A stretch of 64,000 nt of DNA, from positions 11,976-75,975 of the forward strand of contig CALWXF010000007.1 in assembly GCA_944385445.1 (NCBI GenBank). Reading direction: 5' to 3'. This DNA comes from an uncultured Oscillospiraceae bacterium. GTDB lineage: Bacteria > Bacillota > Clostridia > Oscillospirales > Oscillospiraceae. The translations under genes and the position numbers were made by a program. The notes beneath the pieces were generated by a model. That model saw only the letters and a program-made list of their open reading frames with translations. It was not told the origin of the DNA and ran no database searches. This document shows positions 26,308-60,494 of the stretch, piece by piece. How positions within the stretch are numbered: position 1 is the stretch's first letter; each line of letters starts with the position of its first letter.

Positions 26308-26350
26308 AAGGGTCTGTTGCAAAATGGTGGTTTTGCAACAGACCCTTTTT
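26308..26350 (+). terminator. Intrinsic terminator
   Basis: AAGGGTCTGTTGCAAAA-TGGTGG-TTTTGCAACAGACCCTT-TTT. Confidence 0.85.
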
Positions 26351-26547
26351 GGTCAATCCCTCCGTCATGGCTACGCCATGCCACCTCCCTTTACACAAGG
26401 GAGGCTTTAGGCCTGGAAAAGACTTGCGGTTCGCGTTTTTGAAGATAAAATCGACGATTATCATGCAAAAAGTAATAACAGAATCGCCGCAGGACAAAGG
26501 CCCCCTTGTGCAAAGGGGGCTGTCACCGTAGGTGACTGGGGGATTGT
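26351..26547. repeat. Family B REP-like doublet (B1 minus 26351-26405, B2 plus 26496-26547)
   Basis: GCCTCCCTTGTGTAAAGGGAGG..GGAGGGATTG and GGCCCCCTTGTGCAAAGGGGGCTGTCACC..GGTGACTGGGGGATTG. Confidence 0.9.
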
Positions 26548-26609
26548 TTCCGGTGGGGAGTTGGACCGTCTGCGGATGTTGCAGCAGGCCCTTGCATCAA
26601 ATGCCTGTT

Positions 26610-31640: not shown

Positions 31641-31697
31641 CGTAAAAACGTCCTGCTGCACCCCGCAGCAGGACGTTTTTGTACTTTTGAAACTAAC

Positions 31698-31853
31698 GCC
31701 TCCCTTGTGCAAAGGGAGGTGGCCCGGCGTGAGCCGGGTCGGAGGGATTGACGGTACTGGGTATCCTATTTCAACTTGGCTTTGTTCGGTAGCCGACACA
31801 GACAATCCCTCAGTCAGCCTAACGGCTGCCAGCTCCCTTTACACAAGGAAGCC
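31698..31853. repeat. Family B doublet (B1 plus 31698-31752, B2 minus 31801-31853)
   Basis: Same two units, convergent, between pfkB and the ABC ATPase gene. Confidence 0.9.
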
Positions 31854-31862
31854 TTGCGCACA

Positions 31863-35110: not shown

Positions 35111-35139
35111 TTTACAAACCCAGATAAGTGGGCTATAAT
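35111..35139 (+). promoter_or_regulatory. sigmaA promoter
   Basis: TTTACA-N17-TATAAT immediately 5' of the riboswitch. Confidence 0.85.
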
Positions 35140-35144
35140 CTCCT

Positions 35145-35203
35145 GTGGGAATGAAGTTCTCCCACGGGCAACCGAAACCGCTGTGTTCAGCTGATGACTT
35201 CTG
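35145..35203 (+). ncRNA. Fluoride riboswitch (crcB motif)
   Basis: GTGGGAATGAAGTTCTCCCAC..AAACCGCT..AGCTGATGACTTCTG; P1 GTGGGA/TCCCAC; pseudoknot GAAGTT/GACTTC; 3' end overlaps a CTTCTGTGA/TCACAGGGG hairpin. Confidence 0.9.
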
Positions 35204-35395
35204 TGATTTATTTTGGTCACAGGGGGCATTGGCTTTTTTGCTATATAGATATAGCAAAAAAGTACAATGTGCCATTTCCTCGCCCCTTTGGGGCAACCGG
35301 AAAAGATGCACGAAAACTTCATGTGCTCGTTGGGTATCCCGGTTTTGCCGTGCGCTCTGCCCATGAAGTTTTGTGGCCGCAAGGAGGAAACAAAC

Positions 35396-41952: not shown

Positions 41953-42506
41953 AGGCTTGCCAGCCTGGTGGGGACGCTACCCGCTAGGGGTGACTTTCTG
42001 CTGCCAGAAAGGCACGAAAGACCACCAAAGGAGGGGCCTTCCCCTGGTGAGCCGCTGTTCCCAGCTATCGAAAGCCTGGCAGCCCAGTCCATGGGCTGCA
42101 CCGCACCAAAGGCTCCCCTGTGCAAGGGGAGCTGTCAGCCCGTAGGGCTGACTGAGGGGTTGACGGTAGGCAGCCGCAGACAATCCCTCCGAGCTGACTT
42201 CCGTCAGCCCACCTCCCTTTACACAAGGGAGGCGTTGAGTCTGGCGGTGACTGAGGCACCGCTGCTCCAGGGAAGGCCCGGAGGTGGAAAACACCTGGCC
42301 ATAGGGCCAGCTGCCATGGCGGCCTGGTGTGGTGGCAATATCAGGAGCCACAGCAAGGGTGACGGGCCGAGGATCAATTTGACGCAGTTCCAGTCTGGTA
42401 CCTCAGGGAGATTCTTAGGGGGGAACGCCCTAAGCGGGTTTTTCGTCTATTTTTGCCCGGTCAAAAATAGACCCCAGCGGAGCGTCCCCACCAGGCTGGC
42501 AAGCCT
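41953..42506. mobile_element. Family A MITE-like element, copy 4, with 26-bp perfect TIRs, AATAC duplication and a nested B doublet (42108-42233)
   Basis: AGGCTTGCCAGCCTGGTGGGGACGCT (41953-41978) / AGCGTCCCCACCAGGCTGGCAAGCCT (42481-42506); AATAC at 41948-41952 and 42507-42511. Confidence 0.75.
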
Positions 42507-42525: not shown

Positions 42526-42577
42526 GGTCAATCCCTCAGTCAGCCTGGCGGCTGACAGCGCCCCCAGAGGGGAAGCC
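42526..42577 (-). repeat. Single degenerate family B2 unit
   Basis: GGTCAATCCCTCAGTCAGCCTGGCGGCTGACAGC..GGGGAAGCC. Confidence 0.8.
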
Positions 42578-42589
42578 AAGAGTGGGCCG

Positions 42590-45867: not shown

Positions 45868-45874
45868 AATAGGA

Positions 45875-45997
45875 AAAGGCTCCCCTTGTTGCAAGGGGAG
45901 CTGTCAGCCGTTAGGCTGACTGAGGGGATAAAACCAGGGAGGGACAATCCCCCCGACCCGGCGTACGCCGGGCCACCTCCCTTTACACAAGGGAGGC
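45875..45997. repeat. Family B doublet (B2 plus 45875-45930, B1 minus 45943-45997)
   Basis: Starts 2 nt after the prfB stop codon. Confidence 0.9.
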
Positions 45998-45999
45998 TA

Positions 46000-47121
46000 T
46001 TATTTGGTGGCCCAGTTGCCGGTGGCGGAGGCGGTGAGGTAGGCGTTGATGAAGCCGTCCAGGTCGCCGTCCATGACGGCGTTGATGTTGGAGGTCTCAA
46101 AGGCGGTGCGGTTGTCCTTCACCAGCTGGTAGGGCATGAACACATAGGACCGAATCTGGCTGCCCCACTCGATCTTCAGCTGCACGCCCTTGATGTCGGA
46201 GATCTTGTCCAGGTGCTCCTGCTCCTTGATCTGGATGAGCTTGGAGCGCAGCATCTTCATACAGGTCTCTCGGTTTTGCAGCTGGCTTCGCTCGGTCTGG
46301 CAGGCCACCACCAGGCCGGAGGGCTTGTGGATCAGTCGCACGGCGGAGGAGGTCTTGTTGACGTGCTGGCCGCCGGCGCCGGAGGCGCGGTAGACCTGCA
46401 TCTCAATGTCCTCGGGGCGGATCTCCACTTCCACGCTGTCGTCGATCTCGGGGGTCACCTCCACGGCGGCGAAAGAGGTCTGACGGCGGGCGTTGGCGTC
46501 GAAGGGGGAGACGCGCACCAGGCGGTGCACGCCGTGCTCACTCTTCAGGTAGCCGTAGGCGTTCTCACCGTCAATGCGGATGGTGGCGGACTTGATGCCC
46601 GCCTCGTCTCCGTCCTGGTAGTCCAGAATGGAGTAGGTAAAGCCGTGGCGCTCCGCCCAGCGGGTGTACATCCGGTAGAGCATCTGAGCCCAGTCCTGGG
46701 CCTCGGTGCCGCCGGCACCGGCCTGGAGGGAGACAATGGCGGGGGAGGGGTCGTACTCCCCGGACAGGAGGGTGGCCAGACGGGCCTCCTCCATGTTGCG
46801 GATGAGGCCCTCGAAGCCCTCTTCCACCTCGGGCACCAGGGATTCGTCCTCCTCCTCGTTGCCCATCTCACACATGACCATCAGGTCGTCCCAGGTGGAC
46901 AGACGCTTGGCCTGGGCGTTGATCTTGCCCTCCAGCTGGCTGATGCGCTGCTGGATCTTCCGGGCCTTCTCCACGTTGTCCCAGAACCCGTCGGAGGCGG
47001 ACTCCGCCTGGAGCATATCCAGCTCCCGCTCAGCGGCCTCCAGGTCCAGGGCCTGCCCCAGCTCTTCCAGCTCGGGCTTGAGGTTGTTGAGTTTTACCTT
47101 GTATTCGTCAAATTGCAGCAT
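46000..47121 (-). CDS. prfB: Peptide chain release factor 2, single continuous ORF
   Basis: GAGGTEAQDW; GVHRLVRVSPFD; GAGGQHVN; WGSQIRSY; SPF anticodon motif. Confidence 0.97.
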   Translation of the reverse strand: MLQFDEYKVKLNNLKPELEELGQALDLEAAERELDMLQAESASDGFWDNVEKARKIQQRISQLEGKINAQAKRLSTWDDLMVMCEMGNEEEDESLVPEVEEGFEGLIRNMEEARLATLLSGEYDPSPAIVSLQAGAGGTEAQDWAQMLYRMYTRWAERHGFTYSILDYQDGDEAGIKSATIRIDGENAYGYLKSEHGVHRLVRVSPFDANARRQTSFAAVEVTPEIDDSVEVEIRPEDIEMQVYRASGAGGQHVNKTSSAVRLIHKPSGLVVACQTERSQLQNRETCMKMLRSKLIQIKEQEHLDKISDIKGVQLKIEWGSQIRSYVFMPYQLVKDNRTAFETSNINAVMDGDLDGFINAYLTASATGNWATK

Positions 47122-47481
47122 TCTCGTTCATCCTTTAACCGGCCCATGGCCATAATATATCCCATATATTATATAGAAAGGCTCCTGGGTTGTAAAGGGG
47201 GGAGATTCCCGTCAAAAAGATGATTTTTCACCCTCAACGCTGGCTGACAATTGGCCCGGCCTGGCCCATAAAGATCAGGTCGTCCACGTCCTGGGCGGGG
47301 GTGTCGGATTTCGGGGGTGTGGTTTGCAACAACATGGTAGATCGCTCCGTTTCTGTCAATGTCTGTGGAGGAGGGGCGGGCCAATTCCCGCCACACTCCC
47401 CCGTATACCATGTAGTATATGCAAACCAGGGTGAAAAGTTGCGTGAAATTTGGCAGAACGTGAAAATGCATCTCCCCACCC

Positions 47482-47522
47482 TTGACAAGGGCGTGGGACC
47501 CCCATATAATTAACACTGTTAA
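47482..47522 (+). promoter_or_regulatory. Consensus sigmaA promoter with adjacent palindromic operator
   Basis: TTGACA-N17-TATAAT then TTAACA-C-TGTTAA over the expected start site; likely MarR autoregulation. Confidence 0.8.
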
Positions 47523-47543
47523 CTATATGGAGGCGAAGAAACC

Positions 47544-47975
47544 ATGGAATTGGAATGGACGGATGTGATGCACTACCAGCAGCAGATGCAGCGGCTCATC
47601 CGGCTGTTACTGCCCCAGAAGCCGGGCCGGTTGACGGCCAGCGAGTGGGAGCTGCTGTCCTGGCTGTATCTGAAACCCGGCCAGAATCGGCCCATGCAGC
47701 TCAGCCAGTGCAGCGGGATGAAAAAGGAGGCGGTGAGCCGCTGCCTGAAAAGTCTATATGAAAAGGGCTATATCGCCAAGCAGCCCCAGCCCGGGGACGA
47801 GCGGGGTTACTGCATGACCCTCACAGAGTTGGGGATGGAAGAGCTGAAAAACCAGTGTGAGGCCAATCTGGACCCGTATTATGACTTGCTGCGTGAGGTA
47901 GGCCCTGACTTTGTGGCCCTGCTGGAACAGGTGGACCGGGTGGTCCGTCAGGTGGAGGAGGGGAGACAGGCATGA
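47544..47975 (+). CDS. MarR family transcriptional regulator
   Basis: LTASEWELL..VSRCLKSLYEKGYI..DERGY..LTELG. Confidence 0.9.
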   Translation: MELEWTDVMHYQQQMQRLIRLLLPQKPGRLTASEWELLSWLYLKPGQNRPMQLSQCSGMKKEAVSRCLKSLYEKGYIAKQPQPGDERGYCMTLTELGMEELKNQCEANLDPYYDLLREVGPDFVALLEQVDRVVRQVEEGRQA

Positions 47976-49042
47976 GCGTCTATCAGGGGTTGCAGCTGGA
48001 CCCCGCCATTTTGAAGCAGTATATCCGCAAGAGCCAGTCGGCGGGGGAAAAGCGGTACTATTATGCCATTATGGCCGCCCGTTCGGTGCTCATTGTGGCC
48101 TTTGCAATTTTGTTCATCGGGGGGCTGTCCCAGATCTTCGGGCAGGAGAACACCCCCATGGCGGTGGTGCTGTTCTGCTGGATGCTGGCCGTCCGCTTTG
48201 TGAATTTTGAGTACTGTATTCGGGACTCTCTGGTTTCCCTGGGGGCCATGCTGGGCATTTTACTCGTTGCCCCCACCCTGGCCCAGATGGCCCCGCCGGT
48301 GCTGCTGTTTGTCCTCCACGGGGTGGAGTTTTTCGCCCTGCTGACCCTCACCAGCCAGCGGCCCGAGCTGGGCAACGCCGGACTGTGTGGATTCTCCTAT
48401 GTGTATCTCACAGGCAACCCGGTGCAGGGGGAGGTGCTCCTCCAGCGGGCGGGGCTGGCCCTGGTGGGGTATGTGATCTGTGCTCTGATTCTGGTGAAGA
48501 AGCACCGGGGAGCCCACCGGGAGGTGCGCTTCCACCATGTGGTGCGGCGGTTTTCCCTCACCTCCCTCACCCACCTCTGGCAGGTGCGCATGGCGCTGGG
48601 AGTGAGCCTGGTGCTCACCCTGGGCAGCGTGCTCCAGGTCCAGCGGTTTATCTGGATGGGCTTTGCCTGCGCCTCTCTGCTGTCCCAATACCCCTACTCC
48701 CCCGACACCCGCACCCGGGTGTGGCAGCGGATTGTGGGGGTGCTGGCAGGGTCCGGGGCGTACTTTGTGTTGTATCAGCTGCTGCCCAGCGGCCTGCACT
48801 CCATGATGGGGCCCTTGGGCGGGCTGTGCCTGGGCTTTTGCACCGACTATCGGTATAAAACCGCTATGAACTGCTTCGGGGCGTTGATGATGGGCACGGC
48901 CATCTACGGCGTCCAGGATGCGGTGGTGCTGCGCATTGTGGACACCATTCTAGGGGTGCTGCTGGGCATGGTGTTTGCCTGGGTGTTCCACCACCTGGTG
49001 ACGGTGCGGGTGCTGCCAGAACAAGAGAGAAAAACGGCATAA
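47972..49042 (+). CDS. FUSC family membrane protein (putative exporter)
   Basis: About 10 TM; RMALGVSL..WMGFACASLL..RIVGVLAG..RIVDTILG; overlaps marR by 4 nt. Confidence 0.8.
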   Translation: MSVYQGLQLDPAILKQYIRKSQSAGEKRYYYAIMAARSVLIVAFAILFIGGLSQIFGQENTPMAVVLFCWMLAVRFVNFEYCIRDSLVSLGAMLGILLVAPTLAQMAPPVLLFVLHGVEFFALLTLTSQRPELGNAGLCGFSYVYLTGNPVQGEVLLQRAGLALVGYVICALILVKKHRGAHREVRFHHVVRRFSLTSLTHLWQVRMALGVSLVLTLGSVLQVQRFIWMGFACASLLSQYPYSPDTRTRVWQRIVGVLAGSGAYFVLYQLLPSGLHSMMGPLGGLCLGFCTDYRYKTAMNCFGALMMGTAIYGVQDAVVLRIVDTILGVLLGMVFAWVFHHLVTVRVLPEQERKTA

Positions 49043-49079
49043 AAAGGTAATGTGTGTCTTACCAACTTCGCAGAGGGAA

Positions 49080-49205
49080 ACAATCCCCCAGTCACCTGCG
49101 GTGACAGCCCCCTTTGCACAAGGGGGCCTAAGGGCAATGCCGTACCCAACGCCTCCCTTGTGTAAAGGGAGGTGGCCCGGCGTAAGCCGGGGCGGAGGGA
49201 TTGAC
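49080..49205. repeat. Family B doublet (B2 minus 49080-49128, B1 plus 49151-49205)
   Basis: Divergent pair beside the terminator hairpin at 49210-49245. Confidence 0.9.
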
Positions 49206-49259
49206 AAAGAAACAGGCGGTGCAGCGTTTGCTGCACCGCCGTTTTGGCGTTCTTGGAAC

Positions 49260-51778: not shown

Positions 51779-51881
51779 GCCAAAAAAGTGGGCCGCTGAG
51801 CAATCAGCGGCCCCTTTTTTCAAATGAAAAATAAAGAATGAAGAATGAAAATGCAGGTCCTGGGGTGCAGCGCACTCCAAA

Positions 51882-52016
51882 GCCTCCCTTGTGTAAAGGG
51901 AGGTGGGCTGACGTAAGTCAGCTCGGAGGGATTGACAGACCAGACCCTTCCGTCACCCTGCACGGTCAACCCCTCAGTCAGCCTTGCGGCTGACAGCTCC
52001 CCTTACACAGGGGAGC
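51882..52016. repeat. Family B doublet (B1 plus 51882-51936, B2 minus 51964-52016)
   Basis: Convergent pair with AAGAATG-like heptamer runs in the flanks. Confidence 0.9.
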
Positions 52017-52057
52017 CTTTTACCTGGCCATCCAGCCTTATTCTTCTTCATTTCCAT

Positions 52058-60158: not shown

Positions 60159-60185
60159 GGGAATGGCCTCCAAACTTCGAAATCA

Positions 60186-60426
60186 GCCTCCCTTGTGTAA
60201 AGGGAGGTGGCCCGGCGTTAGCCGGGTCGGAGGGATTGTCTGTCACCTGGCCTAGGTCAACCCCTCAGTCTCGTCGGTGCGGACTGTGTATCTCTCGCCT
60301 CGCCCCTGAGAGGCGGGGCAAGTCTCGCTCACGCCGTCGCACCTCCTCTCCCCACCGAACCCGCTTGCGCTGGGCTTCGGCGGGGACCCCGTAACGGGCT
60401 GCCAGCTCCCCTTGCACAGGGGAGCC
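60186..60426. repeat. Family B doublet; the B2 loop holds a ~126-nt two-hairpin insert (60271-60396)
   Basis: B1 60186-60240; B2 arms CCTCAGTC and GGCTGCCAGCTCCCC are split by the insert. Confidence 0.85.
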
Positions 60427-60494
60427 TTTTGTCGAGCCCTCCAGTTTGTGTCCAATGTTTCACGCTTCACTTCTCTCGCCGTCCCGGCCAAAAA

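Follow-up and report, generated by a model that had tools for sequence, protein, structure and literature searches.

The 64-kb window analysed here (64,000 nt from an uncultured Oscillospiraceae bacterium) carries short double-hairpin repeats, family B, that occur in two types, B1 and B2, and usually stand as inverted pairs of one of each. The locus raises the question of what these pairs are and what has spread them. A preliminary description, made from the letters alone, had listed seven B1 and eight B2 units, and had compared them with the REP/REPIN/BIME doublets mobilised by HUH transposases (RAYT), adding an obligate heterodimer rule. All 15 units were found where they had been placed, and a family B covariance model re-found every one of them at the listed coordinates (Table 1). 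The arrangement was also as described, with B1+B2 doublets in opposite orientation, five convergent (tails-in) and two divergent (tails-out), and the unit at 42526 a lone B2. The description of the B2 at 60255 needs one correction: in this long form a conserved 124-nt module (∼60271–60394) replaces loop-A and the 3′ arm of the second hairpin (H2).

Table 1. Family B units of the window and the features next to them
Feature	Coordinates	Strand	Remarks
Terminator hairpin	26310-26350		Directly before B1 26351..26411
B1 (G-type)	26351..26411	-	83.2 bits; tails-out doublet with 26493-26549, 93-nt spacer
B2b	26493..26549	+	H1 3′ arm AAGGGGGC, tail TGGGGGAT, H2 GTCACC/GGTGAC
B1	31692..31753	+	Tails-in doublet, flanked by pfkB-kinase and ABC-ATPase genes that converge on it
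B2c-type	31800..31859	-	Tail TGAGGGAT; partner of 31692 unit
B2a	42105..42165	+	Doublet with 42178-42239, inserted at centre of family A MITE (41953-42506)
B1	42178..42239	-	Partner of 42105 unit
B2, lone, degenerate	42526..42583	-	Just outside family A MITE; 36.3 bits
B2a	45872..45933	+	Variant H1 loop, decayed tail
B1	45942..46003	-	Tail GGGGGGAT, one off-mirror position
prfB-like RF gene	46000-47121	-	B1 45942..46003 directly downstream
B2b	49078..49134	-	Tails-out doublet, 22-nt spacer
B1	49145..49206	+	Partner of 49078 unit
B1	51876..51937	+	Tails-in doublet; H2 GCTGAC/GTCAGC
B2a	51964..52023	-	Partner of 51876 unit
B1	60180..60241	+	aroC-pheA intergenic region; site empty in four related species
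B2a long form, split	60255..60450	-	H1 and H2 5′ arm ∼60395-60450; tail 60255-60270

A census of the whole host genome returned 147 matches with nhmmer and 120 clean units with a structural regular expression. Inverted doublets numbered 41, and all 41 combined a B1 with a B2; none was of B1/B1 or B2/B2 composition. A further 34 units were solo ends. The spacers of the doublets were fixed at 18–19, 22, 49–51 or 94 nt. Outside the host, a G-type unit was joined with a C-type unit in 128 of 142 doublets, in a sample biased toward G-type units. Nearly all units of the host (114 of the 120) were intergenic, the remaining six overlapping over-called ORF starts only, and they were found in 19 of 179 convergent, 41 of 1188 tandem and 4 of 187 divergent intergenic regions. 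The likeness to REP/BIME sequences thus extends to short, structured, high-copy, palindromic intergenic units that form inverted doublets and are enriched after the 3′-ends of genes.

Each unit consists of a pyrimidine/purine hairpin (H1) with a 5-nt GTGYA loop, a hypervariable, always complementary hairpin (H2), and a purine tail that is the mirror image of the 3′ (purine) arm of H1. The blocks read CCTCCCTT/AAGGGAGG/GGAGGGAT, with stems of eight triads. The H2 loops are GNA or GNNA (GTA 23 times, GTAA 16, GCAA 14, and others), in agreement with the G-N(1-2)-A noted earlier. Covariation of the H1 and H2 stems was confirmed on a many-genome set of 144 distinct units: 95.9% of the stem cells were paired, compared with 75.4% in shuffles, two-sided changes were seen in 13 of the 16 stem pairs, and the covariation score was 0.453, against 0.131 in shuffles and 0.05–0.08 in slid controls. 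The G.T pairs of H2 stood mostly at fixed positions, the variable internal positions having 5–6 G.T against 3 A.C. When folded with ViennaRNA, units formed H1 and H2 and left the tail single-stranded, and therefore free for a third-strand role.

The mirror relation between tail and purine arm was followed through sequence changes. In the host genome it held in four haplotypes, with four exceptions among 117 units, and over more than 100 genomes the exact mirror was the commonest tail for all ten types of H1 arm. The six core positions were perfectly mirrored in 392 of 431 units, ∼9% of units breaking the rule. Mirror identity at the core positions reached 98.4%, compared with 87.8% in shuffles (none of 2000 attained the observed value), while shifted registers gave 27–53% identity, a direct-repeat model 47% and a Watson-Crick model 0.2%. 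Pairing of the tail with the 5′ arm of H1 in the manner of SD/anti-SD was rejected on the last two of these values. The same rule was found in repeats of other sequence that flank DUF559 genes (GGGAGAGC/TGAGAGGG, GAGGGGGA/AGGGGGAG, GGAGAAGG/GGATGAGG and GAGGGAGG/GGAGGGAG), the GGGGAAGG families matching the mirror at seven of eight positions; when DUF559 flanks were scanned broadly, the non-mirror control was also high, since the purine runs concerned are nearly self-mirroring. Judged by comparison of sequences, such mirror covariation bears the mark of a purine-motif intrastrand DNA triplex, and is strong comparative evidence for selection on the mirror/triplex relation.

This architecture places family B beside the BoxC/PIT/TM_ECO repeats of E. 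coli and >260 other genomes (Holder et al. 2015, PMC4666352, with references to earlier descriptions of BoxC and to the PIT work of Maher and colleagues). The class has been on record since the 1990s and is linked to genome instability, without a mechanism of spread or a protein partner; the authors found no transposase near TM_ECO, whose triplex was observed in vitro by CD and NMR, folding in vivo not having been demonstrated (PMC4666352). Both kinds of repeat have Y-R-R′ blocks on one strand, R being complementary to Y and R′ mirroring R, with class II C-G-G triads; both are GC-rich, intergenic, multi-copy and extremely conserved in sequence, have no strand bias, and frequently form inverted pairs in which two subtypes are combined, type A with type B in TM_ECO (Table 1 of PMC4666352). 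The differences lie in size, sequence and host. Loop 2 is 3 nt in TM_ECO and in family B a covarying hairpin of 16–24 nt (136 nt in long forms), although loop 1 (3–6 nt in TM_ECO) accommodates the 5-nt GTGYA; the stems have nine triads in TM_ECO, one more than in family B. The TM_ECO blocks read CCCTCNCCC/GGGNGAGGG/GGGNGAGGG, and the consensus CCCTCNCCC-N3-6-GGGNGAGGG-N3-GGGNGAGGG had no match in the whole host genome. Published triplex searches set the maximal loop length at 6 or 10 nt and so had no means of finding family B. Its hosts are Oscillospirales (Clostridia), and neither 'Firmicutes' nor 'Clostridi' occurs in the main text of PMC4666352, nor does that paper contain the DUF559 link described below. 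The class is already known, whereas no description of family B was found in the literature; with family B, triplex-type repeats are extended to gut Clostridia, and the hairpin in loop 2 put this form beyond the reach of the earlier searches.

The preliminary description had suggested looking for a RAYT or DUF559 gene flanked by units. A DUF559 gene was found in that position in related Oscillospirales, in cassettes present in at least 12 genomes, and DUF559 was the only gene recovered by a de novo screen for genes recurrently located between inverted units. The full cassette reads 5′-[CCAAAG, H1, H2, purine tail]-DUF559 ORF-[inverted tail, H2, H1]-3′. Seven genomes (L308, L309, L311, L316, L324, L332 and L334) have a sense B1 right before the ATG and the stop codon within an antisense B2; one (L320) has the upstream B1 and a different 3′ end, three (L315, L329 and L330) have the downstream B2 only, and an intact cassette, B1-DUF559-B2c, is present in the sister species G049. 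The GGAGGG of the B1 tail is the Shine-Dalgarno sequence of the gene, lying 2–6 nt upstream of the ATG, and the last codons of the ORF, like the stop codon, fall within B2. The encoded protein is DUF559/YcjD-like (PF04480, NF007294, and PDB 3HRL at E = 7e-12), and YcjD is related to Vsr (PMC1189080). No published pairing of DUF559 with repeats was found, the DUF559 papers making no mention of flanking repeats. In 151 Oscillospirales genomes, DUF559 and units occurred together in 32, DUF559 only in 6, units only in 24, and neither in 89 (odds ratio 19.8; Fisher P = 5e-12, a value overstated by the relatedness of the sampled genomes). The B-flanked nucleases form a single clade on the DUF559 tree, over which the repeat-type label changed 11 times, compared with a mean of 17.5 in shuffles (0 of 5000 reached 11).

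Family B is thus most probably (∼70%) the set of non-identical ends of a selfish DUF559 cassette, built as triplex-type units and present in the host as gene-less copies. The reading draws on the direct observations of cassette anatomy, covariation, co-occurrence, co-diversification, copy-number differences, and filled and empty sites. Under it, B1 (G-type) would be the upstream end, in sense, and B2 (C-type) the downstream end, in antisense, and the 41 doublets of the host would be internally deleted, MITE- or REPIN-like derivatives. The heterodimer rule then stands as a regularity of the doublets and falls as a pairing rule in its own right, since a gene-less two-ended derivative of B1-DUF559-B2 has one end of each type. 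No DUF559 gene was found in the host genome, which is 91% complete; the nuclease may have been lost, or may lie in the unassembled 9%. At the locus orthologous to that of the G049 cassette the host has a family A-like MITE and no decayed cassette.

The distribution of copies and sites fits a mobile sequence. Within the genus, genomes have 3, 8, 9, 89, 99 and ∼120 copies, and family B occurs in at least 24 of the 30 sampled families of the order with H1 and tail near-identical. At the aroC-pheA site the host has a long doublet and L141 a short one, whereas L129-L132 have an empty site. Comparison with 12 paralogous copies of family A shows one doublet to be an insertion; no target duplication was visible at this single paralogous filled/empty comparison. 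The 49078/49145 doublet is kept in the sister genome G049, and the 1.75-kb stretch that holds it is absent from Ca. Enterenecus faecium. An exact-protein look-up yielded five strain-level contigs, all with the same 306-nt intergenic region and with the element present.

The nuclease might instead be a passenger of independent units that move by another route or serve the host, with DUF559 nested among them or using them as expression signals. Such an arrangement, which is on the unlikely side, would account for the 24 of 56 unit carriers in which no DUF559 was found, among them the host with its ∼120 copies; several of these are >95% complete and copy-rich (e.g. G176), and none was found in G044 despite 99 unit copies. 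The nuclease is therefore not needed for units to persist, nor perhaps for them to spread. A simple deleted cassette would, in addition, not be expected to give solo units or tails-out doublets, and the B1 tail doubling as a Shine-Dalgarno sequence and B2 supplying stop-proximal hairpins would suit units taken over as signals. A passenger does not, however, readily explain the steep gradient of co-occurrence (13 of the 18 genomes with 16 or more scored units have DUF559, against 19 of the 38 with fewer and 6 of the 95 with none), nor the differences in cognate unit sequence among DUF559 clades. In every cassette of the B clade, moreover, B2 itself supplies the ORF end with its stop codon, which favours long joint evolution over chance nesting.

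If the cassette reading is followed to a mechanism, the tail, because it mirrors the purine arm, could lie on that arm in antiparallel orientation, forming G.G-C, A.A-T and T.A-T triads, with H2 as the connecting loop of the putative triplex; in vivo the triplex would fold on the strand in its single-stranded state. The Vsr-like DUF559 protein may then recognise or nick the folded ends and mobilise or homogenise copies in trans, a proposal that the co-occurrence and co-diversification support indirectly and to which somewhat less than even odds are given. More tentatively still, DUF559 proteins could be structure-specific enzymes for their own triplex-folded ends, moving or homogenising gene-less doublets in trans. 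Family B links triplex-type repeats to a specific candidate enzyme. Were the proposal true, a RAYT-like partnership would have arisen from an unrelated nuclease and a DNA triple helix, the long-orphan BoxC/PIT/TM class would gain its first protein partner, and the swaps from G.G-C to A.A-T in >10 lineages would be the first comparative evidence of a selected purine-motif triplex in cells. Should the enzyme link hold, family B would be a second, independent system of repeat and domesticated nuclease beside REPIN-RAYT, and its nuclease a natural protein that reads DNA triplexes.

A role at the RNA level, as 3′-UTR or intercistronic stabilisers, terminators or riboregulators, appears improbable. 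It would fit the position of units after gene ends in the distribution given above, the GNRA-like H2 loops with some G.T pairs on the purine-tail strand, and one G049 cassette that lies between the stop codon of the upstream gene and the terminator of that gene. Lone units, too, are sense in 13 cases and antisense in 6, but this excess falls short of significance, and in doublets both strands are presented. Thirteen tetraloops are GNYA rather than GNRA, and Rfam had no family for the window at gathering thresholds, nor for a doublet and the long unit at E ≤10. The purine-motif mirror triplex does not form in RNA (PMC4666352, citing earlier work), the Watson-Crick model of the tail fails as described above, and bursts of copy number together with empty sites fit mobile DNA.

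The proposal that a HUH Y1 transposase of the RAYT type drives the units has been largely refuted and is now very improbable. The high copy number of the intergenic hairpins, their inverted doublets and their enrichment in convergent regions had spoken for it, but PF01797 was not found in the genome in a search whose positive controls matched. Y1 genes were present in two of five other carriers, where no unit lay within 1.5 kb of them, and unit orientation showed no significant bias when set against the strand of most local genes, taken as a stand-in for replication direction; the gene found between inverted units is DUF559. The parallel with REP/BIME/REPIN-RAYT systems is one of organization: tens to hundreds of short structured repeats between genes, a replicative unit that is probably the inverted doublet, and a small single-gene partner between two inverted repeats, far outnumbered by gene-less copies. 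The BIMEs of E. coli likewise show heterotypic alternation, of Y and Z units. In contrast, the partner of family B is a Vsr-like PD-(D/E)XK DUF559 nuclease and not a HUH Y1 transposase, its unit has two hairpins and a mirror tail where a REP unit has one hairpin and GTAG, and it is spread order-wide, while REP families are usually specific to a species or genus.

That H2 and tail, a hairpin followed by GGATTGA, mimic a CRISPR repeat bound or cut by Cas5d is scarcely credible and a weak lead only: the layout resembles the type I-C repeat of the same genome (GTCGCACCCCACACGGGGTGCGTGGATTGAAAT, array at C12:58-1009), but just 7 nt are common to both, H2 is hypervariable where CRISPR repeats are fixed, and H1, the mirror rule and the DUF559 link are left unexplained.

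Two further kinds of element resemble the B1-DUF559-B2 cassette in part. Like MITEs, family B has gene-less two-ended derivatives, burst-like differences in copy number and nesting within other elements; unlike them, it has no DDE transposase and its two ends are consistently non-identical. The units are themselves the inverted ends, while the family A MITE has 26-bp TIRs and an AATAC duplication. With the DUF559/YcjD family and with Vsr-like (EDxHD) homing endonucleases such as I-Bth0305I (PMC3239194), the cassette has in common a nuclease gene that is small and selfish. The family B cassette lies outside introns and inteins, however, and its gene-less ends are dispersed over many non-homologous intergenic sites, a pattern that classical homing does not produce.

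Clean insertion junctions were not definable against the nearest species, G046 and G049, since intergenic DNA has been replaced wholesale at 93–97% coding identity. Family B units are also markers for turnover hotspots in the intergenic DNA of Oscillospiraceae. Separately, several contigs of the host genome terminate within family B units, which in practice break MAG assemblies.

All 15 family B units placed in the window by the preliminary description are present, and a covariance model trained on 45 units from this genome (G000) re-found every family B unit of the window. Five doublets are tails-in and two tails-out, as had been described, and the unit at 42526 is a degenerate, unpaired B2. 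The B2 unit placed at 60255 needs a correction: its extent is 60255-60450, since loop-A and the 3′ arm of its second hairpin have given way to a conserved 124-nt module. In the common orientation, a unit starts with CCAAAG, followed by a pyrimidine/purine hairpin (H1; CCTCCCTT-GTGYA-AAGGGAGG), TG, a second, variable hairpin (H2) and a 3′ purine tail, C(G/T)-GGAGGGATTG(A/T)C. H2 has a stem of 6-9 bp and a GNA or GNNA loop, in agreement with the G-N(1-2)-A loops first proposed; the compensatory nature of its stem also held, since the ∼20 stem sequences found in the genome are complementary without exception. Among 144 distinct units from G000 and many other genomes, 95.9% of cells were paired (75.4% in shuffles), 13 of 16 pairs changed on both sides, and the covariation score was 0.453 (shuffles, 0.131; slid controls, 0.05-0.08). 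The GC-rich 124-nt module, present in 13 family B units, takes exactly the same place in B1 and B2a units that differ in the H2 5′ arm. One CDS carries a diverged homologue of the module within its 3′ end (see table).

The G000 assembly (2.15 Mb, 37 contigs, 91% complete; the window is contig C7, 11976-75975) rendered 147 nhmmer matches to family B and 120 clean units by structural pattern, with four haplotypes in which H1 3′ arm and tail are linked. The pairing of B1 with B2 noted in the window extends to the whole assembly (41/41 inverted doublets), in a few fixed architectures; 34 units are solo. When a home-made codon-usage caller was used to define genes (1591 genes, 82% of the genome), 114 of the 120 units were intergenic, the remaining six overlapping only over-extended ORF starts. 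Units occupied 19/179 convergent, 41/1188 tandem and 4/187 divergent intergenic regions. The bias of lone units relative to flanking gene direction (13 sense, 6 antisense) was not significant, and no bias of unit orientation relative to the local gene-strand majority was found in G000. Density exceeds 2 units per 10 kb on contigs C4, C7, C8 and C13; contigs C2, C5, C6, C12, C14, C16, C22-C25 and C36 (up to 153 kb) bear none. The GC content of C2, C6 and C36 is 51-56%, versus ∼60%, and the B-free contigs may be mobile elements or mis-binned. Rfam gave no match for family B units, its sole match in the window being a fluoride riboswitch.

Features of family B and its surroundings (contigs without a genome handle belong to G000)
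Feature	Location	H1 3′ arm	Tail	Mirror tail	Number or remarks
B1 haplotype	G000	AAGGGAGG	CGGAGGGATTG	GGAGGGAT	57 copies
B2a haplotype	G000	AGGGGAGC	CTGAGGGGTTG	TGAGGGGT	34 copies
B2b haplotype	G000	AAGGGGGC	CTGGGGGATTG	TGGGGGAT	12 copies
B2c haplotype	G000	AAGGGAGC	CTGAGGGATTG	TGAGGGAT	8 copies
Added arm type	wider sample	AAGGGGGG	GGGGGGAT
Added arm type	wider sample	AGGGGAGG	GGAGGGGT
Added arm type	wider sample	AGGGGGGC	TGGGGGGT
Added arm type	wider sample	AAAGGAGG	GGAGGAAT
Added arm type	wider sample	AAGGAGGG	GGGAGGAT
Added arm type	wider sample	GAGGGAGG	GGAGGGAG
Doublet B1 > 18-19 nt < B2a	G000				20, plus 2 with degenerate B2a tail
Doublet B1 > 49-51 nt < B2c	G000				5
Doublet tails-out B1/B2b, spacer 22 or 94 nt	G000				11
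Doublet B1 > 18 or 53 nt < B2b	G000				3
124-nt module	window ∼60271-60394				in long B2a unit 60255-60450
124-nt module, other long units (examples)	C4:34502-34623, C8:41432-41553, C13:4057-4177
Diverged module homologue	C6:87122-87198				78 nt, 86% identical
Family A MITE	window 41953-42506				26-bp perfect terminal inverted repeats (AGGCTTGCCAGCCTGGTGGGGACGCT), AATAC both sides
PF04480 adjoining units (examples)	G088:C46, G079:C23, G165:C12, G078:C19, G183:C15
Stop-to-terminator niche	G049 (L334:1411-1953)				cassette plus extra B1
Same niche	C8:58738-59345				family A-like MITE
H1-core copies	Pseudoflavonifractor sp. An85				3
H1-core copies	P. capillosus An386a				8
H1-core copies	E. faecium				9
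H1-core copies	BRZ_QR bin68				89
H1-core copies	E. avicola				99
H1-core copies	this genome				about 120
Fluoride riboswitch RF01734	window 35138-35210				43.7 bits; upstream of antiporter-like gene
CRISPR array, type I-C-like	C12:58-1009 (outside window)				15 repeats of GTCGCACCCCACACGGGGTGCGTGGATTGAAAT

In all four G000 haplotypes, the tail mirrors the 3′ arm of H1 and does not complement it. A wider sample of 235 loci from >100 genomes yielded more arm types, and these too were accompanied by the corresponding mirror tails. The mirror was perfect at six core positions in 392/431 units; mirror identity was 98.4%, as opposed to 87.8% for shuffled tails (the observed value being reached by 0/2000 shuffles), 27-53% for shifted registers, 47% for a direct-repeat model and 0.2% for Watson-Crick pairing. 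The exact mirror was the commonest tail in 10/10 arm types, which 0/20000 shuffles matched. A mirror repeat is not something that a polymerase can copy, and the simple reading is therefore structural: a purine-motif intrastrand triplex. Judging from the sequences, an antiparallel position of the tail along the H1 purine arm would give G.G-C, A.A-T and T.A-T triads and, outermost, a T facing a C-G inversion; H2 would be the connecting loop. When single units were folded as DNA the tail stayed unpaired, while in doublets the two tails paired with each other with two mismatches, a competing structure. The layout of the CRISPR repeat listed in the table, a hairpin then GGATTGA, resembles H2 plus tail.

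Intrastrand triplexes of this kind form a known class, BoxC/PIT/TM_ECO, with the motif CCCTCNCCC-N3-6-GGGNGAGGG-N3-GGGNGAGGG (Holder et al. 2015, PMC4666352). TM_ECO is a class II purine-motif triplex whose folding was demonstrated in vitro by CD and NMR; the repeats are intergenic, without strand bias and occur in >260 genomes, and no neighbouring transposase or integrase was found by the authors (PMC4666352). Heterotypic pairing is not new, because TM_ECO copies were already published as inverted type A plus type B pairs (Table 1, PMC4666352). The class has thus been described, but family B is set apart within it: its sequence differs (G000 contains no match to the TM_ECO pattern), its stems are of 8 nt, and a whole hairpin, H2, stands where TM_ECO has a 3-nt second loop. 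Published TM searches would miss it because they limited loops to ≤6 or 10 nt. We consider it likely (probability about 0.7) that family B belongs with the BoxC/PIT/TM intrastrand-triplex repeats as an undescribed variant, present in G000 as the gene-less ends of a DUF559 nuclease cassette.

A RAYT transposase, the driver first suggested, is very unlikely as partner, since no Y1/RAYT gene was found in the 91% complete G000 (PF01797; control genomes matched) and the Y1 genes of 2/5 other carrier genomes lie more than 1.5 kb from any unit; the likeness to REP/BIME remains a fair analogy. Screening for any ORF recurring between inverted family B units recovered only a DUF559 protein of 116-139 aa, which matches NF007294 (YcjD) and PDB 3HRL (E = 7e-12); YcjD is a Vsr relative of the PD-(D/E)XK superfamily (PMC1189080). 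In 151 Oscillospirales genomes, PF04480 matches lay directly beside or between covariance-model matches. The layout B1 (sense)-DUF559-B2 (antisense) is constant in seven loci (L308, L309, L311, L316, L324, L332 and L334); L320 shares the upstream B1 but ends differently on the 3′ side, and only the downstream B2 is seen in L315, L329 and L330. Because the sense B1 stops 2-6 nt before the ATG, its GGAGGG tail is the ribosome-binding site; at the other end, the ORF enters the antisense B2 and its TGA stop codon lies within H2. This layout would explain why doublets are always B1+B2, why tails-in is their chief form and why the two unit types differ.

Across the 151 genomes, DUF559 and units occurred together in 32, DUF559 alone in 6, units alone in 24 and neither in 89 (odds ratio 19.8, p = 5e-12, for genomes that are related and hence not independent); 24/56 carriers thus lack DUF559. 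The B-flanked nucleases form one clade; around the remaining DUF559 clades stand different unit families obeying the same mirror logic, and repeat labels change 11 times on the DUF559 tree, versus a shuffled mean of 17.5 (0/5000 shuffles reach 11). That the nuclease acts on family B units is a tentative suggestion from these associations, somewhat short of an even chance. In the E. coli K-12 locus L338 (NC_000913 1351204-1351840), a perfect 15-bp hairpin covers the ribosome-binding region of ycjD, also a DUF559 gene, which terminates at a CCCTCTCCC-TGA-AAGAGCGAGGGGG hairpin; TM_ECO copy no. 9 (1351204-1351239) follows ∼170 nt downstream. The arrangement repeats the theme of the family B cassettes.

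The search proposed at the outset for a DUF559 gene flanked by units thus succeeded in related genomes, while none was found in the 91% complete G000. Unless the 9% missing from the assembly contains a cassette, its copies are therefore orphans. Such a loss in assembly is possible, since some contigs break off within units. One intact B1-DUF559-B2c cassette is present in the sister genome G049, between the upstream gene's stop codon and that gene's terminator; at the orthologous place G000 has a family A-like MITE (see table).

Flanking genes assign the organism to Enterenecus (Oscillospiraceae), the aroC product sharing 98% identity with its Ca. Enterenecus faecium counterpart. H1-core copy number varies widely within the genus, from 3 to ∼120. 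Exact B1 30-mers were found in >117 contigs from many Oscillospirales MAGs, and covariance-model matches in 56/151 sampled Oscillospirales genomes (24/30 families). The aroC-pheA spacer holds a long doublet in G000, a short one in bin68 and none in four other species. The doublet at 42105-42239 was inserted in the middle of a family A MITE, as seen by comparison with 12 paralogous copies without it; G000 has >50 further family A copies, most without a central doublet, and B units are central in at least two more (C1:98921, C1:131941). These related-genome and paralogue comparisons allowed neither an insertion junction nor a target duplication to be defined for family B doublets. A 1.75-kb stretch of the window (47458-49215), with two genes (one encoding 143 aa, the other a FUSC_2 protein of 356 aa) and a B2b/B1 doublet, is missing from the syntenic Ca. 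Enterenecus faecium contig and kept, with its doublet, in G049.
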